Assembly (NCBI RefSeq): GCF_053078305.1
Contig: NZ_CP166879.1
Length of the DNA: 64,000 nucleotides
Strand: one strand, 5' to 3'
The notes beneath the pieces were generated by a model that was given only the letters and a program-made list of their open reading frames with translations, had not been told where the DNA came from and searched no databases. The translations under genes were made by a program, and so were the position numbers. Every line of letters begins with the position of its first letter. Within the stretch, counting starts at the first letter, position 1. Of this stretch, positions 14,521-52,909 are shown in pieces.

Positions 14521-14542
14521 TACCTGACGAAAAATAGAAAGC

Positions 14543-18436: not shown

Positions 18437-19618
18437 ATGCCACTTACTGTTCGGCAAATTGAGTCGGCCAAACCTGCTGACAAGGATTACAAACTTTCTG
18501 ATGGTCAAGGACTTTACCTTCTTATCAAGAAATCTGGCGCTCGTTACTGGAATCTGAAGTATCGATTTGCGGGTAAAGAAAAGAAATTGGTGATTGGTGT
18601 CTATCCAGGTATATCACTGGCTCTGGCGCGTCAGAAACGGGATGAAGCACGTAAACTCCTCGCTGAAGGAAAAGATCCTTCATATGAAAAACAGGCAAGT
18701 AAACATGCACTAAGAGAAAGTATTGCATGCACATTTTGTACTCTTGCAGAAGAGTTGTTCACACATATGGCTTGTCGTTGGACTGCGGGTTATTTAGCGG
18801 ACCAGCGTGCAAGATTCGAGAATCATATTAATCCCATGCTAGGGAAACGTCCTGTGGCTGATATTCGCCCCTTGGAAATATTGAATGCACTGAGGGTTAT
18901 AGAAAAGAATGGCAAACTTGAAGCGTTACGTAAGACTCGTCAGCTCTGTTCTCAAATATTTGATTACGCCATTGCGACGGGGCGCGCCACTATTAACCCA
19001 GCATCGACTCTCAACAGTGTTGTTCTTCATCCAGAAAAACAGCAGAGACGGATGCTATCTGAAGAACAGTTAGGCGCTTTCATGTACCAAATGAAAGTTT
19101 CAGGCAATTTTATGTCTCTGGTAACGCAAATACTGGTTCTAACTGCTGTTAGAACGGGAGAATTACGCCTTGCTACTTGGGATGAAATTGATTTTACCAA
19201 TGCCTTATGGGTAATCCCAAAAGAGAGAATGAAAATGCGAAGGCCGCATGTTGTTCCACTTTCTCATCAGACTCAAATGTTATTGAAAGAGATAAAAATA
19301 ATCACAGCTCCCCGTAACTCCGAGCTGGTTATTCCTGGTGTATACAGAGATAATCAACCTCGTGGTCGCGGTTGCATCAACGAGTTTCTTCAACAAGTTG
19401 GCTGGCATACATTCACTACAGCTCATGGTTTTCGGCATACTTTCAGTACCATTCTCCATGACCATGATTTCAGCTCTGCCTGGATTGAACTCCAGCTTGC
19501 CCATGTTGATAAAAACATCATGCGCGGCACCTACAACCACGCACAGTATCTCGATGGTCGTCGTGAAATGATGCAATGGTACGCTGACTACATTGATTCA
19601 CTTTCTGAGCAGGCCTGA
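18437..19618 (+). CDS. int: P4-type (phage) tyrosine integrase
   Basis: 393-aa ORF; N-terminal DUF4102-like MPLTVRQIESAKP...KDYKLSDGQGLYL and C-terminal catalytic region (HGFRHT...Y). Confidence 0.9.
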   Translation: MPLTVRQIESAKPADKDYKLSDGQGLYLLIKKSGARYWNLKYRFAGKEKKLVIGVYPGISLALARQKRDEARKLLAEGKDPSYEKQASKHALRESIACTFCTLAEELFTHMACRWTAGYLADQRARFENHINPMLGKRPVADIRPLEILNALRVIEKNGKLEALRKTRQLCSQIFDYAIATGRATINPASTLNSVVLHPEKQQRRMLSEEQLGAFMYQMKVSGNFMSLVTQILVLTAVRTGELRLATWDEIDFTNALWVIPKERMKMRRPHVVPLSHQTQMLLKEIKIITAPRNSELVIPGVYRDNQPRGRGCINEFLQQVGWHTFTTAHGFRHTFSTILHDHDFSSAWIELQLAHVDKNIMRGTYNHAQYLDGRREMMQWYADYIDSLSEQA

Positions 19619-19653
19619 TGAATGAAAGTTCAGTGATGCAGAAATAATGAATA

Positions 19654-32692: not shown

Positions 32693-34783
32693 ATGCGAAT
32701 AACCACTCTGGCTTCCGTAGTCATTCCCTGTCTCGGATTTTCAGCCAGCAGCATAGCTGCTGCAGAGGATGTGATGATTGTCTCGGCATCCGGCTATGAG
32801 AAAAAGCTGACTAACGCAGCCGCCAGTGTTTCTGTGATTAGCCAGGAGGAATTGCAGTCCAGCCAGTACCACGATCTGGCGGAGGCTCTGAGATCAGTAG
32901 AGGGTGTGGATGTTGAAAGTGGTACGGGTAAAACCGGTGGGCTGGAAATCAGCATCCGAGGAATGCCAGCCAGTTACACGCTGATACTGATTGATGGTGT
33001 TCGTCAGGGCGGAAGCAGTGACGTGACTCCCAACGGTTTTTCTGCCATGAATACCGGGTTCATGCCCCCTCTGGCCGCCATTGAGCGTATTGAGGTTATC
33101 AGGGGGCCGATGTCCACACTGTATGGCTCTGATGCGATGGGCGGTGTGGTGAATATCATTACCAGAAAGAATGCAGACAAATGGCTCTCTTCCGTCAATG
33201 CAGGGCTGAATCTGCAGGAAAGCAACAAATGGGGTAACAGCAGCCAGTTTAATTTCTGGAGCAGTGGTCCCCTTGTGGATGATTCTGTCAGCCTGCAGGT
33301 ACGCGGTAGCACACAACAGCGTCAGGGCTCATCGGTCACATCACTGAGCGATACAGCAGCCACGCGTATTCCTTATCCCACGGAGTCACAGAATTATAAT
33401 CTTGGTGCACGTCTTGACTGGAAGGTGTCGGAGCAGGATGTGCTCTGGTTTGATATGGATACCACCCGGCAGCGTTATGATAACCGGGATGGGCAACTGG
33501 GGAGTCTGACGGGGGGATATGACCGGACCCTGCGCTATGAGCGAAACAAAATTTCAGCTGGCTATGATCATACTTTCACCTTCGGAACATGGAAATCGTA
33601 TCTGAACTGGAACGAGACAGAAAATAAAGGTCGTGAGCTCGTACGCAGTGTACTGAAGCGCGACAAATGGGGGCTTGCCGGTCAGCCGCGGGAGCTTAAG
33701 GAATCGAACCTTATCCTGAATTCATTACTGCTTACCCCTCTGGGAGAATCTCATCTGGTTACGGTGGGGGGCGAGTTTCAGAGCTCGTCCATGAAAGACG
33801 GAGTTGTCCTTGCCAGCACAGGTGAAACTTTCCGGCAGAAAAGCTGGTCGGTATTTGCTGAGGATGAGTGGCATCTCACGGATGCACTTGCGCTGACTGC
33901 GGGCAGCCGCTATGAACATCATGAGCAATTCGGGGGACACTTCAGTCCGCGTGCATATCTGGTCTGGGATGTGGCAGATGCCTGGACGCTGAAAGGCGGT
34001 GTGACCACGGGATATAAGGCACCCAGAATGGGGCAGCTACATAAAGGGATTAGTGGTGTGTCCGGGCAGGGAAAAACAAATCTACTTGGTAACCCCGACC
34101 TGAAGCCGGAAGAGAGCGTCAGTTATGAGGCTGGGGTGTATTACGATAACCCCGCCGGTCTGAATGCCAATGTCACAGGTTTTATGACTGACTTCTCCAA
34201 CAAGATTGTCTCTTATTCCATAAATGATAACACCAATAGCTATGTAAACAGCGGAAAGGCCCGGTTGCACGGTGTGGAATTTGCCGGCACATTGCCGCTG
34301 TGGTCAGAGGATGTCACGCTGTCACTGAATTACACCTGGACCCGAAGTGAACAACGTGATGGTGATAACAAAGGTGCGCCGCTGAGTTATACCCCTGAAC
34401 ACATGGTGAATGCGAAACTGAACTGGCAGATCACCGAAGAGGTGGCATCATGGCTGGGTGCCCGTTATCGCGGGAAAACACCACGTTTCACCCAGAATTA
34501 TTCGTCACTGAGCGCTGTACAGAAGAAAGTGTATGATGAGAAAGGAGAATACCTGAAAGCCTGGACGGTGGTGGATGCAGGTCTGTCGTGGAAGATGACG
34601 GATGCCCTGACGCTGAATGCTGCGGTGAATAACCTGCTCAACAAGGATTACAGTGACGTGAGCCTGTTCAGTGCCGGTAAGAGTACGCTGTATGCCGGTG
34701 ATTACTTCCAGACGGGATCATCAACAACGGGATATGTGATACCTGAGCGAAATTACTGGATGTCGCTGAACTATCAGTTCTGA
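32693..34783 (+). CDS. iha: TonB-dependent outer-membrane receptor, Iha-like (IrgA homologue adhesin / siderophore receptor)
   Basis: 696-aa ORF; signal peptide, TonB box (DVMIVSAS), plug domain and C-terminal aromatic beta-barrel terminus (NYQF); length and sequence recalled as Iha. Confidence 0.7.
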   Translation: MRITTLASVVIPCLGFSASSIAAAEDVMIVSASGYEKKLTNAAASVSVISQEELQSSQYHDLAEALRSVEGVDVESGTGKTGGLEISIRGMPASYTLILIDGVRQGGSSDVTPNGFSAMNTGFMPPLAAIERIEVIRGPMSTLYGSDAMGGVVNIITRKNADKWLSSVNAGLNLQESNKWGNSSQFNFWSSGPLVDDSVSLQVRGSTQQRQGSSVTSLSDTAATRIPYPTESQNYNLGARLDWKVSEQDVLWFDMDTTRQRYDNRDGQLGSLTGGYDRTLRYERNKISAGYDHTFTFGTWKSYLNWNETENKGRELVRSVLKRDKWGLAGQPRELKESNLILNSLLLTPLGESHLVTVGGEFQSSSMKDGVVLASTGETFRQKSWSVFAEDEWHLTDALALTAGSRYEHHEQFGGHFSPRAYLVWDVADAWTLKGGVTTGYKAPRMGQLHKGISGVSGQGKTNLLGNPDLKPEESVSYEAGVYYDNPAGLNANVTGFMTDFSNKIVSYSINDNTNSYVNSGKARLHGVEFAGTLPLWSEDVTLSLNYTWTRSEQRDGDNKGAPLSYTPEHMVNAKLNWQITEEVASWLGARYRGKTPRFTQNYSSLSAVQKKVYDEKGEYLKAWTVVDAGLSWKMTDALTLNAAVNNLLNKDYSDVSLFSAGKSTLYAGDYFQTGSSTTGYVIPERNYWMSLNYQF

Positions 34784-35429
34784 TAATAACAAAACGCTAT
34801 CACTGACGGTAGAATACGTTGCCACTGCAACTCCTGGCGGAACAGTGGCAACGTATTAGGTTAAGTGCATTTCCGATCCGCTAATGAGATTTCGTTACCA
34901 ACAACTAATATCGTCACAGGAAATGCACGGATTATTTTTAACTTATCATTTACATACTTGTCCAGAGTGTAAGCGCACCGTGAAGGACGAGGGGTAAAAA
35001 TTAGTTTACAGAGAGAGTGACGTTCCAGGGCAACAACTCTTTCATGCGGTTGGCAGGCCAGGTGTTGATTACACTGATCACGTGGCGTAGCCACGTTTCC
35101 GGCTCGATTCCGTTAAGTTTTGCAGCTACCGATCAGGCTGTACATCACTGCCGCACTATCGCTCGTCATCTCAAAGTCCGGTCTCGTCAGCAGGAAGGTA
35201 TCATTCTCTCCCGCCATTTTTCCGGAAGCCCGGTCAGATAAGTCCCTTTGTCTATCGCTGACTCCTGGCTCATAACCCGGTTAGCAGAATGCAGGGTCAC
35301 CACCTCGCCACGACCGAATCCGGATAAGTCAATTGCACCTTCTCAATCGCCATTTTGTCACAATTAAGTTTGATAAAGCAGGTCACTGAGGTGTACTGGC
35401 AATAGCGGACACTACCATTTGTTCTTTTT

Positions 35430-36248
35430 TTAAGCAGCCATCTGATGATATTTTTCCCTGAAGGCTGCCGGGGAGATATTCCCCAGACGAGAGTGACGAC
35501 GCTGACGATTGTAGAAAATCTCAATGTATTCCCGTATTACTGAGATGGCCTCATCCCGGCTCTTAAAACGATAGTGGCTCAGGCTCTCATTTTTCAGCGT
35601 TCCCCAGAAGCTTTCCATCGGAGCGTAGTCGTAACAGTTACCTTTACGCGACATTGATGTTTTCAGACCAAACTGCTCCTGTATGACCCGGTAATCGTAT
35701 GCGCAGTACTGTGAACCTCGATCGGAGTGGTGGATTAGCCCGGCAGGTGGGCGCTGGCTCCTGAGCGCCATAAACAGGGCTTTACCTGTCAGCTCTTTTG
35801 TCATGCGCTCTCCCATGGCGTAGCCGACAATTTCGCACGTATAAACATCTTTGATGCCAGCGAGGTACAACCATCCCTCCTGTGTGGCAACATACGTCAG
35901 GTCCGCCACCCAGACCTGATTTGGTGCTGTAGGAGCGAACGTCTGGTTCAGCAGATTTGGCGCAACTGGCAGATTGTGGTTCGAGTTCGTAGTCGCTCTG
36001 AACTTGCGTTTATGCTTACAGCGTAGCCTTAGCTCCTTACGAAGACGTGCCAGTCGGTCACGACCAACGATGATGCCATTCTCTGCCAGCTCCGTCTGGA
36101 GCCGCCGGGTTCCATATGTTTCGCGAGTGCGGATATGTGCCACCTTAATCTCCAGTTTTAGCCGCTCATCACTTTGTTTTCTGTCTGAGGGTTCATGCTG
36201 TACCCGGTTGTAATAACCGCTCCTGGATACACCAAATACCTGACACAT
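35430..36248 (-). CDS. IS600 OrfB (DDE integrase-core transposase; expressed as OrfAB by frameshift)
   Basis: 272-aa ORF with HSDRGSQY and SMSRKGNCYDYAPMESFWGTLKNE motifs. Confidence 0.88.
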   Translation of the reverse strand: MCQVFGVSRSGYYNRVQHEPSDRKQSDERLKLEIKVAHIRTRETYGTRRLQTELAENGIIVGRDRLARLRKELRLRCKHKRKFRATTNSNHNLPVAPNLLNQTFAPTAPNQVWVADLTYVATQEGWLYLAGIKDVYTCEIVGYAMGERMTKELTGKALFMALRSQRPPAGLIHHSDRGSQYCAYDYRVIQEQFGLKTSMSRKGNCYDYAPMESFWGTLKNESLSHYRFKSRDEAISVIREYIEIFYNRQRRHSRLGNISPAAFREKYHQMAA

Positions 36249-36283
36249 CGCTTCAATGGGAAATTGTTGTCGCCATTGTTCGA

Positions 36284-36586
36284 TTAACGCGTATTTTTCA
36301 GCGACTCCTGTGCAAAATACGCTGTTGCTTTTTTTAATATATCTCGCTCAAGGCGAGCTTCATTTAACGCCTTACGCAGTTGCAGAATTTCAGATTCCAG
36401 TTCAGCCACCGTGCGGGAACCAGGAGTACCGAGCCCTTTTCTGGCGGCGGTAACCCATTGTCCTAAAGTGCCTTCAGGAAGAGATAATCGGGAAGCGCCT
36501 TCACTGATCGAAAGTTGATTTTCAAGAACCGTTCTGACAGCTTCGGCTTTGAACTCTTTAGAGTAACGTTGGGTTTTTCTGCTCAT
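36284..36586 (-). CDS. IS600 OrfA (HTH transposase subunit)
   Basis: 100-aa ORF, HTH plus leucine-zipper-like region typical of IS3 OrfA. Confidence 0.85.
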   Translation of the reverse strand: MSRKTQRYSKEFKAEAVRTVLENQLSISEGASRLSLPEGTLGQWVTAARKGLGTPGSRTVAELESEILQLRKALNEARLERDILKKATAYFAQESLKNTR

Positions 36587-37071
36587 TATTAGCTCCTTCT
36601 GATGCCATTCTATTTCAGGAAGGAGTGTCCGTTAAACTCAGGCTACCTCACATCAGATGCCAACGCAACATTCCCTGCCATAAGCGCAGCCAGAACGCCT
36701 GTTACAACTAAACTATTCCTGGTGATATTGCTCATTCTCTTTCTCCATTTGTCGAGGATTTGGGCGTTGATTTTCGACGAGCTCCAGTTGCAACTCCAGT
36801 CTTAAGGTTATATCGGGATAGCACACAAGTGTTACACGCATAAACAAAAAATACCCAAAAAGTATTATTTCATAACATTTATTCATGGAAGATAACAATG
36901 AAACGATTCAGCTATATTTTTTAAACTAAAAAATACTTTATAAGAACATCCCAATTTTGGAGGCGATACTCATTCTCCCCCTGATAAATAAACACTCTCG
37001 TCCGACAGGGCGTGGAAACTATCAATAACCACAGTAATGATGCTGACTTTGTTTTCGTTTAAGGAAATGAC

Positions 37072-38628
37072 ATGCACGATTACCTGCTTTTTTTACTGGG
37101 ACTTACCCCCCTTCTGGCGATGATCATTTTGATTCTGAAAGTCAAAATGCCCATACACTATTCTGTGCTTAGCACTCTCCTGCTCACGCTAATCCTTGGA
37201 GGGGTTTTCTGGCAGACGCCAGTTATGGATATGGGATCTGCTGTGGTATACGGCGCAATCAAAGGTTTGTGGCCGATTGTGATTGTCATCCTTGCTGCCA
37301 TTTACAGCTATAACCTGATGAATGCGACAAAAAGCATGGATATTCTGAGAAATGTTCTAGCCAGCGTGAGCGATGATAAACGTATCCAGGTTCTTCTTAT
37401 CTCATGGTGTTTTGGCGGATTTCTTGAGGCGGCCGCCGGATACGGTACAGCGGTAGCAATCCCCATAGGTATACTCATTGCACTGGGCTTTAACCCACTA
37501 AAAGCAGCGATTGCATCACTGGTTGCTAATACAGTCCCTACAGCGTTTGGGGCAGTCGGTATACCTGTCTCCGTGCTTGCTGAACAAGTTAATTTACCTG
37601 TAACCACACTCAGCGGGACGATTATTCTTCAGCTGGCACTGTTCAACATTCTGCTCCCCTTCGTTATCGTCACGATTATCGGTGGAGGTATGAAAGCTAT
37701 ACGAGGCGTAGGGTTAATTACCCTGATGTGCGGTATTAGCACATTGATACCTCAGTATCTGGTGGCTGTTAATCTTGGCGCAGAGCTCCCGGCTTTCGCA
37801 GGAAGTCTTGTCAGTCTGATCGTTATAGTCTTTATGGCAAAAAACCGTAAAGAAAAAACAGAACCTGAATTTCTTATTGAGAGTTCAGCAGATAGCGCCA
37901 GCGCACTTTCATACTCTCGTGGGGCGTTGTTACGTGCGTGCTCAATCTACATTCTGATCTTTCTGTTCATTCTGCTTTGCTCTCCACTGTTCCCGACGAT
38001 AAAAAGTGCAGTGTCTCAGATTGCCTCGTCACTCACCTTCTCTCTGAGTAACGGCAGCAATCTGTCGATGAAAATTGAATGGATCGCAACCCCCGGTGTT
38101 CTGATTATCATTGCCAGTGTTATTGGCGGCTTGATACAGAAAGCATCCCTGTCATGCCTGTTAAACGTATTTGTCAGCACGGTAAAACAACTTAAAAACT
38201 CCATTATTGCCATTTCTGCGATTGTTGCCATGGCAACGGTAATGGATGTCTGTGGGTTGATTGGCACTCTGGCACAGAGCCTTGTGGATCTGACTGGTGG
38301 GGCCTACCTCTTCATTGCTCCGGTTATCGGCGCTCTTGGTACATTTGTTACTGGTAGTGACACAAACTCCAACATTCTGTTTGGTAAATTGCAGACTACT
38401 GCGGCTGAAAAATTGCATGTGGACCCGCTCTGGCTGGCTGCCGCAAATACATCTGGCGCAACAGGCGGCAAAATGATTTCTCCTCAGAGTATTGCTATCG
38501 CTGTTTCAGCCACCCGTATGGATGGTCAGGGCAGCGTAATCATGTCAGGAACACTGAAGTACTGCTTTGCTTATATTGTTATTCTTGGACTGAAAGTAGG
38601 CCTTGTCTACCACCTGTTCATGGCCTGA
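37072..38628 (+). CDS. lctP: L-lactate permease family (LctP) transporter
   Basis: 518-aa polytopic membrane protein with LctP-family features. Confidence 0.8.
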   Translation: MHDYLLFLLGLTPLLAMIILILKVKMPIHYSVLSTLLLTLILGGVFWQTPVMDMGSAVVYGAIKGLWPIVIVILAAIYSYNLMNATKSMDILRNVLASVSDDKRIQVLLISWCFGGFLEAAAGYGTAVAIPIGILIALGFNPLKAAIASLVANTVPTAFGAVGIPVSVLAEQVNLPVTTLSGTIILQLALFNILLPFVIVTIIGGGMKAIRGVGLITLMCGISTLIPQYLVAVNLGAELPAFAGSLVSLIVIVFMAKNRKEKTEPEFLIESSADSASALSYSRGALLRACSIYILIFLFILLCSPLFPTIKSAVSQIASSLTFSLSNGSNLSMKIEWIATPGVLIIIASVIGGLIQKASLSCLLNVFVSTVKQLKNSIIAISAIVAMATVMDVCGLIGTLAQSLVDLTGGAYLFIAPVIGALGTFVTGSDTNSNILFGKLQTTAAEKLHVDPLWLAAANTSGATGGKMISPQSIAIAVSATRMDGQGSVIMSGTLKYCFAYIVILGLKVGLVYHLFMA

Positions 38629-38677
38629 GAAAAAACAACAAAAGGACGTGGAATATTAATCAACAGGAGAAATTTCT

Positions 38678-39397
38678 GTGAATGTTAACTTTTTCGTCAC
38701 CTGCATTGGTGATGCGTTTAAATCCCGGATGGCACAAAAGAGTGTGCTGTTACTGGAGCAATTGGGTTGCAATGTCCATTTCCCCGAAAAGCAGGGATGT
38801 TGTGGTCAGCCAGCGATAAATGGCGGTTATGTTCGTGATGCCATCCCGGGCATGAAAAATCTCATATCTTCGCTGGAAGAGAATGACTGGCCGGTAGTAT
38901 CTCCTGCCGGGTCATGCACTTACACGATAAAAAATTACGCTCGCTATCTCAGTGAAGAACCTGAGTGGGCGGCACGAGCTGAAAAAGTGGCTGAACGCCT
39001 GCATGATTTGACATCATTTATAGTAAATCATCTTGGCATCACAGATGTTGGGGCAAAACTCAATGGTCGCGCTGTGTACCATCCCTCCTGCAGCCTTTCC
39101 CGTAAGCTGGGTGTAACCAGAGAGCCGCTTTTGCTACTTGAGAATGTACAGGGGCTTGAGCTACTGCCGTTTCACGCTCAGGAAACGTGCTGCGGGTTTG
39201 GCGGCACATTCTCTGTAAAAATGGCGGAGATCTCTGGTGAAATGGTGAAAGAGAAAGTCGGGCATATTATGGATGTTAAACCTGATTTTCTTATCGGGGC
39301 TGACGCCAGTTGCCTGCTAAACATCGGCGGTCGGCTTAACCGTGAAGGGCATCCTGTAAAAGTGATGCATATTGCTGAAGTCCTGATGCACAGATGA
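38678..39397 (+). CDS. lutA: Lactate utilisation protein A (LutA/YkgE-like, cysteine-rich CCG-domain Fe-S oxidoreductase)
   Basis: 239-aa ORF, GTG start with AGGAGA RBS; two CCG-type cysteine motifs (CCGQPA, CCGFGG). Confidence 0.82.
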   Translation: MNVNFFVTCIGDAFKSRMAQKSVLLLEQLGCNVHFPEKQGCCGQPAINGGYVRDAIPGMKNLISSLEENDWPVVSPAGSCTYTIKNYARYLSEEPEWAARAEKVAERLHDLTSFIVNHLGITDVGAKLNGRAVYHPSCSLSRKLGVTREPLLLLENVQGLELLPFHAQETCCGFGGTFSVKMAEISGEMVKEKVGHIMDVKPDFLIGADASCLLNIGGRLNREGHPVKVMHIAEVLMHR

Positions 39398-39407
39398 GGT
39401 AAACAGA

Positions 39408-40823
39408 ATGTCTTTGAAAACAAGTGATATCAGGTTTAAAGAGCGTATCCGTATTCAGATTCAGGACCCGATCATGCGAAAAGCTGTGGCTAACGCACAG
39501 GAGCGCATAGGGACTAATCGACAGAAAATGGTTGATGAACTGGGACACTGGGAGGAATGGCGTTCACGAGCTGAACAGATTCGTCGGCATGTTCTGGAAA
39601 ATCTTGATGCTTATTTGTATCAATTGTCCGAAAAGGTTACTGCGAATGGCGGGCATGTATATTTTGCCCGTACCAGAGAGGATGCAACCAGTTACATACT
39701 GAAGGTGGCGAAAGAAAAAAACGCCAGGAAGGTTGTTAAATCCAAATCAATGGTGACTGAGGAAATTGGCATGAATGCCGTTCTTCAGAAAGCCGGGATA
39801 CCCGTGATTGAAACGGACCTTGGGGAATATATTCTTCAGCTAGCACATGAGCCACCATCGCATGTGGTTGTGCCGGCAATACATAAAGATCGCCATCAAA
39901 TCCGCAGAGTTTTACATGAACATCTGGGGTATGACGGGCCTGAAACTCCAGAAGCAATGACATTGTTCATCCGTGAGAAAATCAGACAAGATTTTCTGAG
40001 TGCTGAAGTTGGCGTAACGGGGTGTAACTTTGCCGTTGCAGAAACAGGGTCAGTCTGCCTTGTTACAAACGAAGGCAACGCACGGATGTGCACCACATTA
40101 CCTAAAACACATATTGCTGTTATGGGTATGGAGCGTATTGCTCCGACATTCCAGGAGGTGGATGTTCTGATTACCATGCTTGCAAGGAGTGCTGTCGGGG
40201 CGAGACTGACAGGTTATAACACCTGGCTTACAGGCCCCAGAGAAGAAGGACATGTTGATGGTCCGGAAGAGTTCCATCTCGTTATTGTTGACAATGGGCG
40301 TTCAGAGATTCTCGGCTCAGAATTCAGCGATGTATTGCGATGTATCCGCTGCGGTGCCTGCATTAATACCTGCCCGGCTTATCGTCAGATTGGTGGGCAT
40401 GGTTATGGTTCAATCTACCCGGGGCCAATCGGCGCGGTTATTTCCCCATTGCTTGGTGGATATGAAGACTTTAAGGATTTACCCTATGCCTGCTCATTGT
40501 GCACTGCCTGCAATGGGGTATGTCCTGTAAAAATACCTCTGGCAACGCTAATACAAAAACATCGCCAGGTTATGGCAGAGTCTGAAATCACACCATTAAC
40601 GGAACGCCGTATAACCAGAGCATTCAATTACATAAACAGCCATCCGGCGTTGTGGAAGGTAGGTATGGTTGCTGGGGCCAAAACAGCCCGTCTGTTCATC
40701 AGGAAAGGAAAAACGCCGATTAGTGTTGGGGCGATAAAAGAATGGACTGAAGCCAGAGACCTGCCATCACCTGATGGAGAAAGCTTCCGTAGTTGGTTCA
40801 AGCGACATAAGAAGGAGGGGTAA
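39408..40823 (+). CDS. lutB: Lactate utilisation protein B (LutB/YkgF-like, 4Fe-4S ferredoxin + LUD domain)
   Basis: 471-aa ORF with two CxxCxxCxxxCP ferredoxin motifs (CIRCGACINTCP, CSLCTACNGVCP). Confidence 0.85.
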   Translation: MSLKTSDIRFKERIRIQIQDPIMRKAVANAQERIGTNRQKMVDELGHWEEWRSRAEQIRRHVLENLDAYLYQLSEKVTANGGHVYFARTREDATSYILKVAKEKNARKVVKSKSMVTEEIGMNAVLQKAGIPVIETDLGEYILQLAHEPPSHVVVPAIHKDRHQIRRVLHEHLGYDGPETPEAMTLFIREKIRQDFLSAEVGVTGCNFAVAETGSVCLVTNEGNARMCTTLPKTHIAVMGMERIAPTFQEVDVLITMLARSAVGARLTGYNTWLTGPREEGHVDGPEEFHLVIVDNGRSEILGSEFSDVLRCIRCGACINTCPAYRQIGGHGYGSIYPGPIGAVISPLLGGYEDFKDLPYACSLCTACNGVCPVKIPLATLIQKHRQVMAESEITPLTERRITRAFNYINSHPALWKVGMVAGAKTARLFIRKGKTPISVGAIKEWTEARDLPSPDGESFRSWFKRHKKEG

Positions 40824-40826
40824 TTT

Positions 40827-41525
40827 ATGGAAAACAGAGAGGAATTTCTCGTTGCGATCGCCAGAAAGCTTGGCAGACCAGTAAGACATATTCCCGAAGC
40901 AATGCCGGAGCCTGTAAATACGCTGGCTACGACACGTTTAACAGAGTTGACATCAGACCAACGCTGTGAGGCGTTTATTAAATTTGCCTCGGAAGTGATG
41001 CTTGCCGAGTGTGTTCTGGTGTCGCCTGAGAACGCACCATCAACAGCCTTAGACATCTGTTGGAAGTTCGGTTCCGGGCCAGTCATTATCAGCAACGATC
41101 AACGACTGGTCGATACAGGGATTACGCCATTGCTACAAAAAGAAATGGACGCTGCTCTGTGGGATCCGGAGAAGGGCGATGAAAATATCCATCTTGCTGA
41201 AAAGGCAAAAACTGGTGTCGTTTTCGCTGAGTATGGGCTGACAGAATCAGGAGGCATTGTCTTATTCTCCGCACCAGAACGTGGGCGCTCAGTAAGCCTT
41301 TTGCCTGAAGCATCATTATTTGTTTTACGTAAAAGCACCATTCTCCCCAGAGTGGCGCAGCTTGCGCAAAAACTTCATGATATGGCTCAGGAAGGACAAC
41401 GGATGCCGTCCTGTATAAATCTGATTGGAGGCCCAAGTTCTACTGCAGATATAGAACTGATCAAAGTTGTTGGCGTACATGGTCCTGTACATGCAACCTA
41501 TTTGATCATTGATGATTGCGATTAA
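40827..41525 (+). CDS. lutC: Lactate utilisation protein C (LutC/YkgG-like, LUD domain)
   Basis: 232-aa ORF immediately after lutB; operon context. Confidence 0.78.
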   Translation: MENREEFLVAIARKLGRPVRHIPEAMPEPVNTLATTRLTELTSDQRCEAFIKFASEVMLAECVLVSPENAPSTALDICWKFGSGPVIISNDQRLVDTGITPLLQKEMDAALWDPEKGDENIHLAEKAKTGVVFAEYGLTESGGIVLFSAPERGRSVSLLPEASLFVLRKSTILPRVAQLAQKLHDMAQEGQRMPSCINLIGGPSSTADIELIKVVGVHGPVHATYLIIDDCD

Positions 41526-41957: not shown

Positions 41958-41985
41958 TGAACCGCCCCGGAAATCCTGGAGACAT

Positions 41986-42211
41986 CTGGCCACCCTGATT
42001 CCTTCCCGTAACAACTGACGCCAGACTTTACGCACATCGTATACGCACGGTATCTTTTTCTTCAGCCAGTCATCACGCTGCGCACGGGCATTGCGTTTAT
42101 CAGGATGATGTCGCTGTTGCTGACAGTGGTAATACGTTGACGGGGCAATATGCAGTTCACTGCATACCGGTCCGATCCCGTACTGCTCACGCGACTTATC
42201 CAGCAGTGGCA
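41986..42211 (-). pseudogene. IS629 OrfB, truncated after ~75 codons
   Basis: MPLLDK...HIAPSTYYHCQQQRHHPDKR matches IS629 OrfB N-terminus then runs into the terminal IR. Confidence 0.7.
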
Positions 42212-42538
42212 TTATTTTTTCCAGGGGCGGTCGAACTCCGCCTTCGCAAAATAAGTGGAAGCCTGGCGAAGGATATCGTTACTGCGGCTCAGTTCACGAT
42301 TTTCACGTTCCAGCTCTTTCAGACGCTGACGTTCAGTGGTGGTGAAACCACCATCACCGCCCCCAATATCCTGCTCATGCTGGAGTACCCAGACGTGCAG
42401 AGTCTCCGGTGTACAGCCAATCTTAGGGGCAATAGAACAAATTGCTGTCCATTGTGAGTCATATTCGCCCTGACTTTCCAGAACCATACGAACTGCCCGT
42501 TGACGGACTTCGGGGGAAAAACGTGTATTTTTAGTCAT
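42212..42538 (-). CDS. IS629 OrfA
   Basis: 108-aa ORF MTKNTRFSPEVRQRAVRMV... recognised as IS629/IS1203 OrfA. Confidence 0.85.
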   Translation of the reverse strand: MTKNTRFSPEVRQRAVRMVLESQGEYDSQWTAICSIAPKIGCTPETLHVWVLQHEQDIGGGDGGFTTTERQRLKELERENRELSRSNDILRQASTYFAKAEFDRPWKK

Positions 42539-42752: not shown

Positions 42753-44300
42753 CTACTTGCGTAGCGATAAAATTGCCCGTGCGGTTTCAGCACGGTTATA
42801 GATCTGCATTTTTTTTATTGCAGCATCCACATCTTCACCGCTTTTCTTATTCAGTTTAATCAGAAACTCAACAGGTAATAGCGAAGCTAAATTTTCAAAT
42901 TTTGATTCAGACCAAGTAATGGTTGCAACAGCCCCTTCAGTTCTCTTAATCATTAGTTTTTTAAGTAATTCTAAACGCTCTGGCTCAACAGTTATATAAC
43001 CAATCGGCAGGGTTAATGCACTATCAGAATTAGGTTGACCGTGGTATTGCACCAAAGCAATCACATCAGGAATTAAGAGGATCTCCAAACGATCAAATTT
43101 AGCCTCTGAAGTAAGGCCAATACCGGTAGGAAAACGACCTAAGTGCCGCTTACGCTCTTGACGTTTTTCACCTTCATCTGCACTTGAGTGTAAAAGCGAA
43201 ATGCGAGCAATCTTATCATCGGCATAATTGCCAAGTATATCGCCTAGAGCGCGAGTAAAACGCGAAAGTTGACTACCATTAGCTCCCCACAGTGGTACTT
43301 TACTGCTATACCACAGCGCTTTTGGAGCTGTTTTACCTATATAATCACGTAATGCATTATGCAACATACTAATGAACAGCTTAGAATTGTGCGGCAAATA
43401 AACAGCCCCTAACATGCCGGTAGTCAATGAAGTACCGTAGCCAGTTTTACGTTGTTCACGAGCCTCTATCCAGCCGGAATAGTTGAACTTATAACCATTA
43501 GCAAATTGTAACAACACTTTATCATTTGCTAGTTTACAGAAATCTTCACAGTCGATACCGAATTCATCTAGTTTATGTTCTCCCAAAAAATCTGCGATAT
43601 GAGCTTCCAGCTCGTTTGAAAGCGGCAGCCGGGTGTTACCTAAATATTCATAGGAACGAGTAAATTTCTGCGGCTCAATGCTCCCAGCAGAAACACCGTA
43701 GCTAACCTCTATCTCTATTGGGAGCTGCACCATCTCATGCGAACTACAGCCCATTATCTTATATAATTTAGTCCGTTGACGCTCATACTCGCTGTTGCGG
43801 CTGAGCAAAAGATGGTGCCGAAACTGGGAACTAAAAGCCTCTGTTACCGCAGCAGCATCTCCCCCGATCTGATGCCGCGGCAATAGCTCTGGCAGTCCAG
43901 AAGTAAAACGACGATTTGGTTGCGGTTTACATATCGAAAGAGTTAGTAGATCGAATGCAACTTCCTCCGTACATTCTTGATATTTAACTAAACTTGGCTT
44001 CCCACCATTATTAGCTGCATGCTTACGTAGGAATGAGCTAGCCTCAATATGCCCATCAGGATTAATGTTGATCAGTCTGTTAGCCAGCAACCCATCAAGC
44101 AATACCTCTCGCTCACGATCAGTTAGACCAAAGTAATTCTGTAACTCGCTGGGATAGAGTTGATCAAAAATCAGCAGCAAGCGACATGCAAACTGTTCAA
44201 TTCCAGGCATCAGTTTTTCAGTGGTCAAAGCGCAGTTGATCTTGTAACTACGCGCAGGTAGTAAAACGGTAATCAGATTACCCAGACGTGGTTCTGACAT
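42753..44300 (-). CDS. Hypothetical 515-aa protein, translationally coupled partner of the NERD-kinase-helicase gene
   Basis: Long ORF with start ATG overlapping upstream TAA (TAATG); no recognisable motif by eye. Confidence 0.8.
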   Translation of the reverse strand: MSEPRLGNLITVLLPARSYKINCALTTEKLMPGIEQFACRLLLIFDQLYPSELQNYFGLTDREREVLLDGLLANRLININPDGHIEASSFLRKHAANNGGKPSLVKYQECTEEVAFDLLTLSICKPQPNRRFTSGLPELLPRHQIGGDAAAVTEAFSSQFRHHLLLSRNSEYERQRTKLYKIMGCSSHEMVQLPIEIEVSYGVSAGSIEPQKFTRSYEYLGNTRLPLSNELEAHIADFLGEHKLDEFGIDCEDFCKLANDKVLLQFANGYKFNYSGWIEAREQRKTGYGTSLTTGMLGAVYLPHNSKLFISMLHNALRDYIGKTAPKALWYSSKVPLWGANGSQLSRFTRALGDILGNYADDKIARISLLHSSADEGEKRQERKRHLGRFPTGIGLTSEAKFDRLEILLIPDVIALVQYHGQPNSDSALTLPIGYITVEPERLELLKKLMIKRTEGAVATITWSESKFENLASLLPVEFLIKLNKKSGEDVDAAIKKMQIYNRAETARAILSLRK

Positions 44301-47300
44301 TAGTTGTTATCTCCAAGCAGACTTTGACCACACAGGATTTGGTAGTTGGGTTCATCTACTGCAACCTGTTTACTAATAAATTCATGAACGTTTCCAAGTG
44401 CTGAATCATTATTGGTCTTTGACCACATACGCCTTGCTCCCAGAATCAATAACCTTTCTTGAGCTCGCGAAATAGCAACGTTTATTCGCGGCGCGTCGCG
44501 CAGGAAACCTTGTAGTTTGTTGGGATTATCGCGAACCAGACTGAGGATAATTATCTTGTTTTCCTGGCCCTGATATGAATCAACGGTATCGATCTTGATC
44601 AAACCACGTAACGATGCAGCCCATTCAGCCCGACTGATAGCATTGTCAATTTCCTCTTTTTGCTGACGATACATTGTGATTATACCAATAGGATATGGCT
44701 GTTCTGTGGTAATAGTTTGCTCAAGCTGTGCAATGCAGCCATCACTCGACAATGACTGCAAAGCCTCTAGCAGTAGCCGGACTTCTCGTTGATTATAGTA
44801 ACGACCATTACCCTTATGTTCTTCTGCACCTGCTTCATTAGGGCTCGAACTATCGATCCAAGTAACAGTTTTGTTCCAAGGGATTGGTAACTTGGAATAC
44901 CAATCTGGCGAGACTTTCCTCGATGAATGCAGTTTACCGATATCTTGAGCGTAAAAGCACTCCGATACTAACTCGCCAATTGGTTCTACCATTCGATATT
45001 GAGTATCGAGTGTTACGCCGCCTGTTGCTTTAAAAGCACGTTCAAAATCAGACTCATAAAAGATCCCTTTCCCGAGTTCTAATTTCTTAGAGGCTAACTT
45101 AAGATGCTGTTGATGATAGAATGGTGGCAATTGTTTATGATCCCCTACCAACAGCACCCGCTTGCCTGATTGCAGCGCTACCATCAATTCAGCAGCTTGT
45201 GCTCGGCCAGCCTCATCAACTATTACCCAATCAAAGCTGGACTCAGCTAGTTCTAGTCGACGATTCCCAACACCAACAAGAGTTCCACAAACCAATCGCT
45301 TACTTTTGAACATAAATCGATCAAATCCAGCCTCGCCGCCGCGTAATACATCCATCCACTCTTGGCTCATTTCCAATAGCTGCATAAAACGTTCAAGGTT
45401 CTCTGGATTGTTATAATTGTATTGTATGGCAACTTGCTCAGCCAACTGTCTTATCAAGGTTTCATCATAGACAAGAGTTTTCAGCAAGCTGTCATCGAAT
45501 ATTGAGTTAATAATTTCTTGTGTTCGCAGTTTAAGCTGATTGCTTTGTTCTAATAATTCAGCCAGTCGCTCTTGATGACTAATACTACTACTCTTTATTT
45601 GTTCTACTTTATCCAGCTCACGGCTATATTGGCCATATGTCACCATCAAGGGATTCAGCGTACGATGTAACTGACATAACTGTTGGACTAATAATGGGGC
45701 CATCCCTAGGCGCTTTCCTAGGGAGCTAACTCGCAGATCATATTCACGGTGAAATTTATGCTGAATCTGTCGCTGAAGAGCTTTAGTTGCAACACTTAGC
45801 ATACCCTCATCAATCATAAGTTCATTACCAATACGTACTGTATCCAGTTCCATTCCTTTCGTATGGCAGAGCTCTCGAGCCTTGATGGCTACATTATCAA
45901 CAGAGGCATGGGATTGCCCGACCAAAAGAATGTTATTCACACCGCAATGTTGATACAGATAGTGAATAAATTTTGAAATAAATGTTGTTTTACCTGTTCC
46001 AGGTGGTCCCTGCAGAACTCCAACTGGTCCAAACTCGACCAACTGTTGAAATGCCATTAGCTGCTGTTCATTAAAACGTTGTCCAGGCTGATCATAAAGT
46101 GCGCGTAATGTCTCCGCGGATGGCCGCGGTTGCATTTGCTGCATGCAGGGTTTCTGGTGGTAATCAAAATACTGTGGCAGATGCTGGATCTCTGCTTTGT
46201 TTTCAATTACCCGTTGAAGGGCTCTTTGACGCAACTCTCTTGATGATTTGTCACGGATCGATTCCAATTGTAGCTGGCTGCCGCTACTAATTCGCTTACG
46301 AGCAGCATCAAAATCAAAGCGAATAGCCAATAGACTCGGCGTAGTCTCACTTAGCTGCAATTCCCCTAATTGCACTGATTCACGCTTATCTTTAATATAA
46401 ACAATGATCTTATCATCAAGTTCAAAGCTGAGGTCAGCACCGGATTCCGTAGTATATGGGTAGAGTAAGCAACCACTCGGTGATTCCTGAAAGTCAGTAG
46501 AGTCGATGTTGACTATATCTCGTAGGTCTACTTCTGTATCAGATAATGCCTGCCATAACTCAATTGGGCTTGACTCACTACTATCGAAGTCATCTTCATC
46601 CATCTCTTGATTAGGATTAGCTCGCTCAATGATGGCATCAATTACTGGCTCGAGGTTAAACAGTAGTTCAATAAAAGTATTACGCTGATTAAGTGAGCCA
46701 CGTTGTAATGAAAGTTGAGTATTAATTTTAGCCTGGGAATATTTACCAGCCTTTATACTTTCTTCGATCGATAATCCTTTTTCATACACTATTCTATTAA
46801 TAGTGCGATTATCAGGATCTAAGTCTATCAATAGCCGCTCTCCTAGGCCAGTGATGTAACAACGCAATTCATGCGCAAAGCGTGGGTTAGATGACCAGTT
46901 ACATTGAAAATAATAGATCCCATCATTTTGTTCTAGAAGCTTCACTTCTTGCGGCCAATCATCTGTGCCCCAGCAAACAGGAATTACCTTATCCTGTGAC
47001 TCAGACGCCACAACTTGATTAATCTCAGCTTGTTCCGGTGCTCGAATTGACTGCAGCAAAGGATCGAGCGCGATAGGTATACCGTCAACGGTTTGTTTTG
47101 CGCGTTCTAGCTCAGCCTGCACCAGTACTGGCATATCTTCACTAAATAGCTCCTCCACCATACGATATACTGCAAAGCAATCTCGCCCAAAAGCATCAGT
47201 ACTTTCGGGATTCTCTGGCTGGTAGCGATTATCTGCAGTTAATTCATCACTGAATTCAAGCAATCCAATCAGAGTAATTACTGTCTGCTCCCCGACTTGT

Positions 47301-49258
47301 ACCAGCAGTTTCTCTGGGCAAAGATCTCCATGAGGTAACTGCTTTTCATGAAAAGCATGAATGGTGTTGATCAACTTTTCCGCAATTGTAAAACGTTGGG
47401 ATTGTACTAACACGTTCTCAGCAATAAACTGTGACCACGGTAGGCCATCCACATACTCGCTCACTACATACAAGCCGCCTTGTCCTAATAGTCCATAGGA
47501 CTGCACCTTAGGAGTTGGCAGATTTATATGCGTAAGCTTATCGATCCGTTGCTTAAAAGCGTGGATACGGCGGTTAACACCAGGTTGTTGAGGGGTCAAA
47601 ATAACACCATCCCACAATTTTACCTGCAGAGCTTTCCCACCTTGTTCACAGTGATAACTGATGCTGCCAGTCGTAGCAATAGCAGCAAGAGCAGAGTAAA
47701 CCATAGACAACTGTTCAGGAAGTGGAGGAAACTCAATTAACACACCAACGCTGTTCATCCCTTCGCGAAAGAATTTGTTTTGCTTTAATTCTTGATAAAT
47801 CTGGTTAGCTTCATCAAATTCTTGGCTATGTTCCTTAGTAGCTGCATTAAACTCATTGAGCATTATGTCCGCACGTGGAAAGCGTTTACTTGGCTCAAGG
47901 TTAAGAGCTTGCTCAAACCAGCTATTTAGAATACCGCTAAAAGGATCAGTTAATGGAGCTCTCCATTCAGGCATCTGTCCAGGAGTCAGTAATGATTCAC
48001 CTGCAAAACAAATACGATAAGCAATTACAGCCAACATGAATACATCTAGGCGATAGGGCTCAACTGCTTCTTCAAAAGCATCTTCGGGCAAAATATATGG
48101 AGCACTTTGCAATGTCGGACGCAATGACTCTAGGCTATTATGTCCCTCCAGTGAGGCTGCGCCAAAGCCAGTAACGACAATGCTCTTCTGATCCCCTGCG
48201 TACCATAGATTGTGCGGGTCAATATCACAATGACTGATACCCAAGCTATGTAATTCCGAGAATGGAGCTAATAATGCACGAACGCGATCAATACGCTCAG
48301 ATTTACTCCATCCGTCAGCTTCGCTATCTAGAATCTCATCTAATCGGCTAAAACTACGGCGTAACTCATACAGCTCACGGGCATCATCAGTTATATCCTC
48401 CTCGGATAGTTCCCTTACAGCACGCAACATATAATCCTGCATAGTTGCGCTGCCATGACGAACTAGGCGACCGACTCGAGTCTCACGCAGAGCTATCTCA
48501 GCCCACAATGTTTGCATTGCGTTTGCTACACCCAAGGCATCAAAGTTCCACTGCCGTAGCAGACCTCTGTGTTGACTATTGTCTTTGTGGGTAGCCCTGA
48601 ATTCGTTGTAGACCATGTGAGGGTGACTAAAGAATGGCTTATCGTTCGCAAGATAACCGCTTTCTTTTAGTGGCAAAGGCCTGACTTTTGGTCCTTCAAA
48701 GAAGGACTTAATTATAGGTAATGCCTCATCAGAATTTGGTCGAGGCTTTCCCCCTTCAAAAAGATGAAAAAAGTTAGTGTGTTGCACCAGCTTTTCGTAA
48801 TTTTTTGGGTTACCTATAGTCAAGAATTCATCACGGGTATGAACATAGCGCCTCTCACTTAATGGCAAGTTTTCAGGACCAGCTGTGCCACACAGCACTA
48901 CATGAGCCTCAACATGCAAAAAGTAACCCAGCTTACGAGATAACTCTTCCTGCAACAAATCTTTTAGTCGCAGTGCATGCTCACGCTTGATCTGATAGGG
49001 ACTTTTGCCTCGTGACTTACCATTTTGCAGCCACTTCCCCCCTTCAAATGTGATGTTACCATTCCACTCTTTAAGCTCGACTAATAGCAGACGGTCAGCA
49101 GTAATAATTAGCATATCGATTTCCATCGACCCTTGGCTATCAGTAACAACTAAGCCAGCATAGCCAAACCAACTATCTGGTAACTGCTTAACCATCATAT
49201 CAACTGTTTTGGTTTCGCTGCGGTGCAGGCCAGCACCACCTACTATCTGATACTTCAC
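44300..49258 (-). CDS. 1652-aa multidomain protein: N-terminal NERD-like nuclease domain, two protein-kinase-like domains, C-terminal SF1 (Upf1/DNA2-like) helicase
   Basis: NERD-like D...ELK region (aa ~45-65); kinase catalytic-loop-like HCDIDPHN (aa 343-350) and HGDLCPEK (aa 643-650); Walker A GPPGTGKTT (aa ~1084), Walker B VIVDEAG, SF1 motif TVDSYQGQE. Confidence 0.85.
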   Translation of the reverse strand: MKYQIVGGAGLHRSETKTVDMMVKQLPDSWFGYAGLVVTDSQGSMEIDMLIITADRLLLVELKEWNGNITFEGGKWLQNGKSRGKSPYQIKREHALRLKDLLQEELSRKLGYFLHVEAHVVLCGTAGPENLPLSERRYVHTRDEFLTIGNPKNYEKLVQHTNFFHLFEGGKPRPNSDEALPIIKSFFEGPKVRPLPLKESGYLANDKPFFSHPHMVYNEFRATHKDNSQHRGLLRQWNFDALGVANAMQTLWAEIALRETRVGRLVRHGSATMQDYMLRAVRELSEEDITDDARELYELRRSFSRLDEILDSEADGWSKSERIDRVRALLAPFSELHSLGISHCDIDPHNLWYAGDQKSIVVTGFGAASLEGHNSLESLRPTLQSAPYILPEDAFEEAVEPYRLDVFMLAVIAYRICFAGESLLTPGQMPEWRAPLTDPFSGILNSWFEQALNLEPSKRFPRADIMLNEFNAATKEHSQEFDEANQIYQELKQNKFFREGMNSVGVLIEFPPLPEQLSMVYSALAAIATTGSISYHCEQGGKALQVKLWDGVILTPQQPGVNRRIHAFKQRIDKLTHINLPTPKVQSYGLLGQGGLYVVSEYVDGLPWSQFIAENVLVQSQRFTIAEKLINTIHAFHEKQLPHGDLCPEKLLVQVGEQTVITLIGLLEFSDELTADNRYQPENPESTDAFGRDCFAVYRMVEELFSEDMPVLVQAELERAKQTVDGIPIALDPLLQSIRAPEQAEINQVVASESQDKVIPVCWGTDDWPQEVKLLEQNDGIYYFQCNWSSNPRFAHELRCYITGLGERLLIDLDPDNRTINRIVYEKGLSIEESIKAGKYSQAKINTQLSLQRGSLNQRNTFIELLFNLEPVIDAIIERANPNQEMDEDDFDSSESSPIELWQALSDTEVDLRDIVNIDSTDFQESPSGCLLYPYTTESGADLSFELDDKIIVYIKDKRESVQLGELQLSETTPSLLAIRFDFDAARKRISSGSQLQLESIRDKSSRELRQRALQRVIENKAEIQHLPQYFDYHQKPCMQQMQPRPSAETLRALYDQPGQRFNEQQLMAFQQLVEFGPVGVLQGPPGTGKTTFISKFIHYLYQHCGVNNILLVGQSHASVDNVAIKARELCHTKGMELDTVRIGNELMIDEGMLSVATKALQRQIQHKFHREYDLRVSSLGKRLGMAPLLVQQLCQLHRTLNPLMVTYGQYSRELDKVEQIKSSSISHQERLAELLEQSNQLKLRTQEIINSIFDDSLLKTLVYDETLIRQLAEQVAIQYNYNNPENLERFMQLLEMSQEWMDVLRGGEAGFDRFMFKSKRLVCGTLVGVGNRRLELAESSFDWVIVDEAGRAQAAELMVALQSGKRVLLVGDHKQLPPFYHQQHLKLASKKLELGKGIFYESDFERAFKATGGVTLDTQYRMVEPIGELVSECFYAQDIGKLHSSRKVSPDWYSKLPIPWNKTVTWIDSSSPNEAGAEEHKGNGRYYNQREVRLLLEALQSLSSDGCIAQLEQTITTEQPYPIGIITMYRQQKEEIDNAISRAEWAASLRGLIKIDTVDSYQGQENKIIILSLVRDNPNKLQGFLRDAPRINVAISRAQERLLILGARRMWSKTNNDSALGNVHEFISKQVAVDEPNYQILCGQSLLGDNN

Positions 49259-51295: not shown

Positions 51296-52909
51296 TTATT
51301 TATTGGTGAGTACTACGTTCCATGGCAGGAGTTCATCAACTCGGTTGGAAGGCCATTCTGGCAGTACGCTCAGGATATGGCGCAGATACGCTTCCGGATC
51401 GATACCGTTCAGACGGCAGGTGCCGATCAGCCCGTACAACAGTGCTCCACGCTCGCCGCCGTGATCGCTGCCAAAGAACATAAAGTTTTTCTTTCCGAGA
51501 CAGACTGCACGAAGCGCTCTTTCCGCAGCATTATTATCCGCCTCCGCCAGACCGTCATCACTGTAATAACAGAGGGCATCCCACTGATTCAGTACATAGC
51601 TGAACGCTTCGCCCAGTCTGGATTTTTTCGACAGCGTACCATTCTTCTCCACCATCCATTCATGCAGTGACGTCAGTAACACTTTGCTTCGCTGCTGCCT
51701 GACGGCAAGACGCTCTGACTCCGGTAATCCCCGTATTTCATCCTCGATGGCGTACAGTTCACTGATTCGCTTCAGGGCTTCTTCTGCCGTCGCACTTTTG
51801 CTGCTGATGTATACATCGTGGATTTTTCGCCGGGCATGGGCCCAGCACGCAACTTCTGTCAGTGCACCACCTTCACGTTCTGCACTGAACAGCCGATCGT
51901 AACCGCTGAACGCATCCGCCTGCAGGATACCCCGGAAGGGACGAAGGTGTTGTACCGGATGTTTTCCCTGCCTGTCTGGTGAGTAGGCGAACCAGACCGC
52001 CGGTGGCTCTGATGAGCCCGCATTCCGGTCATCCCGGACATACGTCCAGATGCGTCCTGTTTTTGCCTTTTTTCTGCCCGCTGCCAGCACTTTTACTGGT
52101 GTGTCGTCAGTGTGAACCTTGCGGGTGTTCATCACGTAACGGTACAGGGTATCATTCAGCAGAGTCATTAACTGACAACATGCGTCAACCCAGTTGGAGA
52201 GTAATGCCCGGCTCAGTTCGATGCCCTGGCGGGCAAAGATTTCACTCTGACGATACAGTGGCAGGTGTTCGCAGTATTTTCCCGTTAACACGCGGGCAAG
52301 TAATCCGGAGCCCGCGATGCCGCGCTCTATCGGGCGGGACGGCGCTGGCGCTTCAACTATACAGTCACATTTTGTACAGGCTTTTTTTACCCGAACAGTG
52401 CGGATCACTTTCAGGGCGCTACTCACCAGTTCCAGCTGCTCAGCACTGACTTCCCCCAGATAATCCAGCTCACTGCCACACTCCGGGCAACAACTTTCTT
52501 CAGGCTCCAGACGGTGTATTTCACGGGGAAGATGTGCCGGTAACGGACGACGATGACGTGACTGTCGCAACTGGCGGGGAACCTGCGGGTCATCCTCACG
52601 CCCACTGTAACGATCGCTTTCCTGTTCGCGTTGTTTCAGTTGGGCCTCAGCCTGTTCAACCTCACGCTGCAGTTTTTCAGAACGGGTACCGAACAACATC
52701 CGGCGCAGTTTTTCTATCTGGGCCCTCAGATGTTCTATTTCCCGCTCCTCCTCTTCGATCTTTTCCTCGGCACGTGCCAGTGCAGAGCGCAGGAAGGCCT
52801 CCGTCTCTTCAACCAGACTCAGTTGCTGATCTTTCTGACGGAGGGCTTCAGCCTGCTCAGAGAGCAGCCTTTCCAGCTCAGTGATACGAATGAGGTATTT
52901 CCGACTCAT
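51296..52909 (-). CDS. IS66-family transposase TnpC
   Basis: 537-aa ORF with N-terminal coiled-coil, CPECG zinc-finger-like motif and DDE region. Confidence 0.9.
   Translation of the reverse strand: MSRKYLIRITELERLLSEQAEALRQKDQQLSLVEETEAFLRSALARAEEKIEEEEREIEHLRAQIEKLRRMLFGTRSEKLQREVEQAEAQLKQREQESDRYSGREDDPQVPRQLRQSRHRRPLPAHLPREIHRLEPEESCCPECGSELDYLGEVSAEQLELVSSALKVIRTVRVKKACTKCDCIVEAPAPSRPIERGIAGSGLLARVLTGKYCEHLPLYRQSEIFARQGIELSRALLSNWVDACCQLMTLLNDTLYRYVMNTRKVHTDDTPVKVLAAGRKKAKTGRIWTYVRDDRNAGSSEPPAVWFAYSPDRQGKHPVQHLRPFRGILQADAFSGYDRLFSAEREGGALTEVACWAHARRKIHDVYISSKSATAEEALKRISELYAIEDEIRGLPESERLAVRQQRSKVLLTSLHEWMVEKNGTLSKKSRLGEAFSYVLNQWDALCYYSDDGLAEADNNAAERALRAVCLGKKNFMFFGSDHGGERGALLYGLIGTCRLNGIDPEAYLRHILSVLPEWPSNRVDELLPWNVVLTNK

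Follow-up and report, generated by a model that had tools for sequence, protein, structure and literature searches.

IS600 belongs to the IS3 family of insertion sequences. It was first described in Shigella sonnei and is common in Shigella, EIEC and STEC. Its target comprises 3 nt (PMC9397093), and a bioRxiv report (10.1101/2023.06.07.543989) describes the transposition of IS3-family elements as copy-out-paste-in by way of a circular intermediate. An insertion sequence (IS) situated at the junction of a deletion or rearrangement is a textbook signature, and the kind of event that it betrays is already known. In the course of Shigella genome reduction, recombination between homologous IS has left hybrid copies devoid of duplications at the junctions of deletions and rearrangements (PMC7373316). 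IS600 is also a demonstrated substrate of the IS-excision enhancer (IEE) (PMC9397093), and IEE-dependent excision of IS3-family elements with adjacent deletions has been described in EHEC (PMC9943667, PMC9397093).

Here we analyse an IS600 copy that lies between iha and the lctP-lutABC genes in a stretch of 64,000 nucleotides of contig NZ_CP166879.1, referred to below as the window. The original prediction for this locus was that the copy lacks a matching 3-bp target duplication, owing either to a point change after insertion or to an IS-mediated recombination or deletion involving one flank, and that the latter could explain the abrupt juxtaposition of iha and lctP-lutABC. Like the Shigella hybrid-IS junctions (PMC7373316), the locus combines an intact IS and precise ends with unmatched flanks that correspond to two collinear sites in relatives without the IS. 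It is unlike them in that the deletion is small (3.56 kb), with only pseudogenes and small ORFs lost, and in that 5,426 complete E. coli genomes yielded no two-copy precursor.

Results

A complete IS600 with canonical ends

The element was read directly in the sequence and measures exactly 1264 bp between its inverted repeats, as had been predicted. With a slash marking each joint, the left junction reads ...AAGCAGGTCAC/TGAGGTGTACTGGCAATAGCGGACAC... and the right one ...GTCCGTTAAACTCAGGCTACCTCA/CATCAGATGCC..., so that the element starts with TGAGGTGTACTGG… and ends with …GGCTACCTCA. Its termini, TGAGG…CCTCA, have the 5′-TG…CA-3′ form and, together with the length of 1264 bp, identify it as an IS3-family element and as IS600. 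The terminal inverted repeats are imperfect, agreeing at 19 of 27 positions, and each terminal 26-mer occurs a single time in the 64-kb window where shuffled sequences lead one to expect 0.

The gene content is likewise that of the IS3 family, with an orfA encoding a helix-turn-helix (HTH) protein, an orfB encoding a DDE (rve) integrase and an A-rich slippery site (Table 1); the frameshift itself is predicted. Besides rve, orfB has Pfam matches to HTH_21 and rve_2/3. Identity to seven annotated IS600 copies ranges from 99.37 to 99.53 %, thousands of megablast matches to the element carry the IS600 annotation, and the identical stretch of GPEC1176 is labelled in RefSeq as 'IS3-like element IS600 family transposase, programmed frameshift'. 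The window copy is thus like known IS600 in length, TGAGG…CCTCA ends, 19/27 repeats, orfA and orfB, A7G run and identity (99.4-99.5 %). It is unlike a typical copy in being without a target-site duplication and in having flanks from different sites, the second of these properties accounting for the first.

Table 1. Features of the IS600 locus and its immediate neighbours, in positions of the window
Feature	Position	Strand	Basis or remark
iha (siderophore receptor/adhesin), left neighbour	32693..34783	+	
Transposase pseudogene fragment downstream of iha	35001..35151	-	RefSeq annotation of GPEC1176, moved by offset
Left flanking triplet CAC	35384..35386		Native bases of the left empty site …GGTCAC/CTCTGCAC…
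Complete IS600 (IS3 family), 1264 bp	35387..36650	-	Sequence; transposase genes on minus strand
Terminal inverted repeat, orfB-distal end	35387..35413		TGAGGTGTACTGGCAATAGCGGACACT; 19/27 match to other end
orfB, 272 aa, DDE integrase core (rve)	35430..36248	-	ORF list; Pfam PF00665, E=3e-26
orfA, 100 aa, HTH_Tnp_1	36284..36586	-	ORF list; Pfam PF01527, E=1.5e-20
A7G slippery run in orfA/orfB overlap, presumed -1 programmed frameshift site	36328..36335	-	ATATTAAAAAAAGCAACAGC on minus strand
Terminal inverted repeat, orfA-proximal end	36624..36650		Reverse complement TGAGGTAGCCTGAGTTTAACGGACACT
Right flanking triplet CAT	36651..36653		Native bases of the right empty site …GTAGGCA/CATCAGATG… (YDC107, 13E0767)
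Peptide-ABC-transporter substrate-binding-protein pseudogene, first 85 nt, severed by IS600	36651..36735	-	ATG at 36735
lctP, right neighbour	37072..38628	+	
lutA/B/C-like genes, right neighbours	38678-39397, 39408-40823, 40827-41525	+	lctP-lut span 37072..41525

The target-site duplication is missing

As a positive control, seven arbitrary IS600 copies were taken, six of them chromosomal (from six genomes) and one from a plasmid, and their ends were located by the same terminal sequences as those of the window copy. All seven are 1264 bp long, share the TGAGG...CCTCA ends and are framed by a perfect 3-bp duplication (CCC, CTC, CAT, CAC, GTA, TAC and CAC). The ends of the window copy are therefore rightly defined and the duplication is truly missing: CAC (35384-35386) faces CAT (36651-36653), just as the original prediction had stated. 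For the same reason, re-defining the termini so as to gain a direct repeat, which would have overturned that statement, fails.

The lack of a duplication at this copy is a real departure from the norm. It is a property of the insertion event and not of the element, and it leaves the assignment to IS600 unaffected. The two bases that the triplets share (CA) are not meaningful; by our own arithmetic, 10 of 64 random pairs match by chance at two or more of three bases.

The flanks are two separate sites in islands without IS600

In relatives that lack IS600, the two flanks form distinct sites within one island, their order and orientation unchanged, the left reading …GGTCAC/CTCTG… and the right …GGCA/CATCAG…. 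In YDC107, …GGTCAC is followed by CTCTGCACTG…, and 3,563 bp of uninterrupted sequence separate the left site from …GTAGGCA/CATCAGATG…. The layout is the same in APEC E18005, where the sites are 3,559 bp apart, the LctP protein is identical (WP_000544018.1) and the right flank is 99.7 % identical to the window. Altogether, a coverage of at least 80 % of the uninterrupted iha-lctP stretch is reached in 82 complete genomes that lack IS600, and the window-type lctP is present in at least 26 of them.

The left flank (34784-35386) is kept, at a coverage of at least 80 %, in 1305 complete E. coli genomes. Short matches under annotated IS66-family tnpC genes suggest that the transposase pseudogene fragment within it is of IS66-type origin. 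The right flank consists of the 85 nt of transporter pseudogene followed by the lctP upstream region, and its uninterrupted site is found in many genomes; in those free of IS600 the transporter pseudogene is already just a 153-nt stub.

Both joints of the window copy fall exactly at the IS termini. Since each lies at the last IS base, each was made by transposase-catalysed insertion and not by random breakage. We therefore conclude with high confidence that this IS600 marks a deletion or recombination junction and not a simple insertion, its ends abutting two different target sites. The original prediction was right to suspect an IS-mediated recombination or deletion involving one flank. Its other suggestion, a simple insertion followed by a point mutation in the duplication (CAC to CAT or the reverse), could appeal to the agreement of two of the three triplet bases, but such agreement is expected by chance in about 14 % of random triplet pairs. 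In relatives without IS600 about 3.56 kb separate the flanks, and CAC and CAT are both native, which for practical purposes excludes a point mutation.

Between the iha stop and the lctP start there are about 4.5 kb in APEC E18005 against 2.3 kb in the window, 1.26 kb of which is IS600. The spacer that is absent from the window holds five small ORFs, in which a Pfam search found no families, together with an IS110-family pseudogene, a transposase fragment and the distal part of the transporter pseudogene. Because iha and lctP are neighbours in the absence of IS600, the event shortened the gap and did not create the juxtaposition. The explanation that had been offered for the abrupt meeting of iha and lctP-lutABC thus holds for the shortening by about 3.56 kb, but not for the adjacency, which the 82 IS600-free genomes already display. 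As iha, lctP-lutABC and 421 bp of native DNA upstream of lctP are intact, the gene layout leads us to expect no phenotypic effect of the spacer loss.

A join between different islands at the IS was also considered, the right flanks of the window and YDC107 being 93 % identical, and was rejected: there is no switch of identity at the junction, the two differ once in the first 200 nt beside the IS, and divergence begins inside lctP.

The same junctions recur in other genomes

The left junction, from the iha side into IS600, recurs in seven independent complete genomes, whose origins include the USA, New Zealand and Switzerland, and the right junction, IS600/CATCAGATG-lctP, in at least nine. Three of the seven also retain the intact right junction; the IS600 between the two junctions is intact in GPEC1176 and interrupted by an IS30 in CE0007a and CE0026a. 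In the remaining four (PF9285, VTB96816v, PK-F-10122 and O111:H8 7-58 72A) the left junction is kept and the right side was altered later: it carries an IS30 stub accompanied by a deletion, and 7-58 72A also has an ISEcp1-blaCMY-2 unit. IS elements are classic sites of mis-assembly, but with junctions recurring in this number of independently sequenced complete genomes and a single IS600 in the 64-kb window, a repeat collapse or mis-join at this copy has a negligible chance of being the explanation.

In the STEC strain O111:H8 7-58 72A, ISEcp1-blaCMY-2 (positions 6442-9578 of the fetched locus) takes the place of the lct/lut genes behind the truncated IS600 that lies downstream of iha; a chromosomal AmpC gene thus occupies the same island position.

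IS600 linked to lctP was found with four further left flanks. These are a truncated tssC (adjoining triplet GTG; SCU-106, STEC17-190 and OkiPb01677), an ORF after a 3′-5′ exonuclease gene (GTT; RM10410), a DUF465/dolP-side region (ATC; N51) and an IS1 stub near agn43 (GCC; STEC434 and SA53-3, where the IS600 right end has since been deleted). A duplication is present in none of the four. In four of the five left-flank contexts, homology to the window continues rightward for 5.5 to at least 8.5 kb, to the end of the fetched locus, so that a variable left side is joined to a conserved backbone on the right.

Could IS600 and lctP-lutABC be mobile together, as a composite or one-ended transposon whose insertion site is the left junction? 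The occurrence of the IS600-lctP joint with five left flanks speaks for such a unit, as does the presence of the lut module on plasmids as well (75 places) with variable right-hand neighbours. Yet a second IS600 copy or end, which would make a composite transposon, is absent from the 64-kb window with up to 3 mismatches allowed. There is no common right boundary, the homology passing beyond the lut genes in four of five contexts, and islands free of IS600 carry the iha-side and lctP-side sites in collinear order, which random insertion would not give. We regard joint mobility as very improbable.

Two further candidates were pursued among the other left flanks. A tssC::IS600 insertion with a GTG duplication was sought as a precursor of the sister context and was not found; the sole full-coverage match, OkiPb01677, proved to be an unrelated IS600 in tssB of a second T6SS cluster. 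Nested deletions were rejected, the other four left flanks being absent both from the window and from the 3.56-kb spacer; the sole match in this comparison was the haemagglutinin-repeat gene of RM10410, which aligns with window positions 56353-58197 in reverse orientation.

Homologous recombination through IS600 at the lctP locus

An IS30 lies at the identical position and in the identical orientation inside IS600 in CE0007a, which has the iha flank, and in N51, which has the DUF465 flank. PF9285 and 7-58 72A (iha flank) share with STEC434 and SA53-3 (IS1 flank) a near-identical IS30 stub, accompanied by the loss of 461 bp (36328-36788) that include the right end of IS600 and 138 bp of flanking DNA. 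In these derivatives an IS30 end of about 25 bp is joined to window position 36789, and the two stub alleles differ by 2 bp. The disabled, IS30-tagged form of IS600 is thus found with three left flanks. An IS600 that lacks one end and part of orfA cannot transpose alone, so the left flanks were swapped by homologous recombination in the left 941 bp. Judged from these sequence comparisons, homologous recombination through IS600 demonstrably acts at the lctP locus. IS30 has a hot-spot insertion specificity, and its common position inside IS600 could in principle reflect recurrent insertion. The IS30 site, window 36324-36327 in six of the loci compared, is beside the IS600 frameshift site.

The body of the element has a different history from its flank. 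Between the window and the tssC-linked IS600 there are 10 differences in 1264 positions of the body versus 4 in 8501 of the adjoining right flank (Fisher p = 8e-7), and the window body is no closer to other lctP-linked copies than to unrelated IS600 copies. This divergence fits a replacement of the IS body by recombination, although gene conversion could explain it without a second local copy. IS600 bodies at the lctP locus are SNP patchworks, even among genomes that have both flanks in common; mapping of a crossover by IS600 SNPs was tried and, with bodies of this kind, did not tell the models apart.

Two copies or one step

Given that the copy marks a deletion or recombination junction, we lean slightly towards a hybrid IS600 produced by homologous recombination between two IS600 copies. 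Two copies of the same orientation would once have existed, in one island or in two island variants, one inserted after ...GGTCAC downstream of iha and the other before CATCAGATG upstream of lctP. Homologous recombination between the two would then have yielded one hybrid IS600 and removed the spacer. The shared IS30, the shared stub and the divergence of the IS body favour such a two-copy origin, not decisively. The precursors that it predicts, CAT-IS600-CAT (junction letters TCAGTAGGCACAT with TGAGGTGTACTGG) and CAC-IS600-CAC (junction letters GGCTACCTCA with CACCTCTGCACTG), were each sought together with the spacer among 5,426 complete E. coli genomes, where both gave 0 records at a coverage of at least 80 %. 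A simple duplicated insertion at either site was thus found in none of these genomes.

The main rival, which we consider possible but rather doubtful, is a one-step, transposase-mediated adjacent deletion. A single IS600 would have inserted at one of the two sites, after which one of its ends, or an active tandem-dimer junction, attacked the other site 3.56 kb away in the same molecule, so that the DNA between them was deleted and the IS was kept. Both junctions are exact IS ends, as this would require, and the IS600 copy is intact in orfA, orfB and slippery site. A single rare event would also explain that no intermediate occurs in 5,426 genomes, and GPEC1176, with at most two matches to the query, would have a low IS600 copy number. 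IS-adjacent deletions are referred to in PMC9943667, which cites Kusumoto 2011, as documented for IS3-family elements in E. coli. On the other hand, copy-out-paste-in does not of itself delete adjacent DNA, the IS body has diverged far more than the flank from other lctP-linked copies, and the swapping of flanks on a disabled IS600 indicates that homologous recombination operates at the lctP locus. Two-copy recombination and the one-step intramolecular event yield an identical product, and sequence alone does not separate them.

Beyond the origin of this one copy, we tentatively suggest that the lctP-side IS600 is a recurrent recombination hub, its portable homology shuffling virulence modules between E. 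coli islands, and that an 86-bp deletion in a sister lineage, described below, is an IEE-type excision scar; we would not put the chance of this broader picture as high as even. An IS600/CAT-lctP-lutABC-Mokosh backbone may have been coupled to at least five left modules, namely iha, a type VI secretion cluster, an adhesin/exonuclease module, the agn43 region and a dolP/YadA-like region.

A deletion at the left junction site in a sister lineage

APEC E18005 and 18 others (19 of about 1375 genomes with the region) carry a derived 86-bp deletion between two GGTCAC repeats, which corresponds to window positions 35301-35386 against 5427-5441 of the fetched APEC E18005 locus. Within the 6-bp microhomology, the right edge of this deletion is the very nucleotide at which the left flank is joined to IS600 in the window. 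This agreement may be fortuitous, or the deletion may be the scar that a former IS600 left when an IEE-like process excised it through microhomology.

In stopping exactly at the left junction site of the window, this microhomology deletion of a sister lineage resembles the products of the IEE system. In the IEE model, however, the IS is lost, whereas the window IS600 is retained with both ends exact; the IEE pathway is therefore no direct fit to the window junction. No iee gene was found among the large ORFs examined in the window.

Implications for annotation

Annotators should treat this IS600 as the mark of a rearrangement in which about 3.6 kb of degenerate spacer was lost, and not as a fresh insertion or as the reason why iha adjoins the lactate-utilisation genes. 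The locus cleanly illustrates how the absence of a target duplication can reveal an IS-mediated deletion, and also how a single IS copy connects different modules of islands in E. coli, pathogenic as well as commensal. Apart from correct annotation, its importance is small.

The surrounding island

GPEC1176, the best match at the IS600 locus, is collinear with the window only from about 14.5 to 53.6 kb; window positions 1-14538 and 53583-64000 differ from it, the source strain thus having a different island periphery. By transfer of the GPEC1176 annotation, the island starts beside ulaE/ulaF (about 17463-19634) with a tyrosine recombinase gene at about 18453-19634. In OkiPb01677, lutC is closely followed by a ula PTS gene, which encodes subunit IIC of the ascorbate transporter. 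With ula genes at both island sides, the lutC side being that of OkiPb01677, the island seems likely to have inserted in or next to the ula operon and not at a tRNA gene.

Just after lutC, on the minus strand, lies an IS3-family pseudogene (41982-42538) that carries an AL1L pseudoknot annotation, and homology to some carriers of the lut module stops near it, at about 41861. A two-gene Mokosh-type anti-phage defence system follows at 42753-49258 on the minus strand: its larger protein (1652 aa) combines NERD, kinase-like and SF1 helicase domains and has a full-length PADLOC match to MkoA (1305 bits), and its 515-aa protein matches MkoB (E = 1e-61). Two IS66-family transposase genes are located at 51296-52909 (minus strand) and 53737-55320 (plus strand). 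Finally, a minus-strand ORF of 2606 aa (56166-63986) with haemagglutinin repeats and a PT-VENN pre-toxin domain resembles a CdiA-like contact-dependent toxin or adhesin, and is 94 % identical over 1.8 kb to the gene left of IS600 in RM10410.
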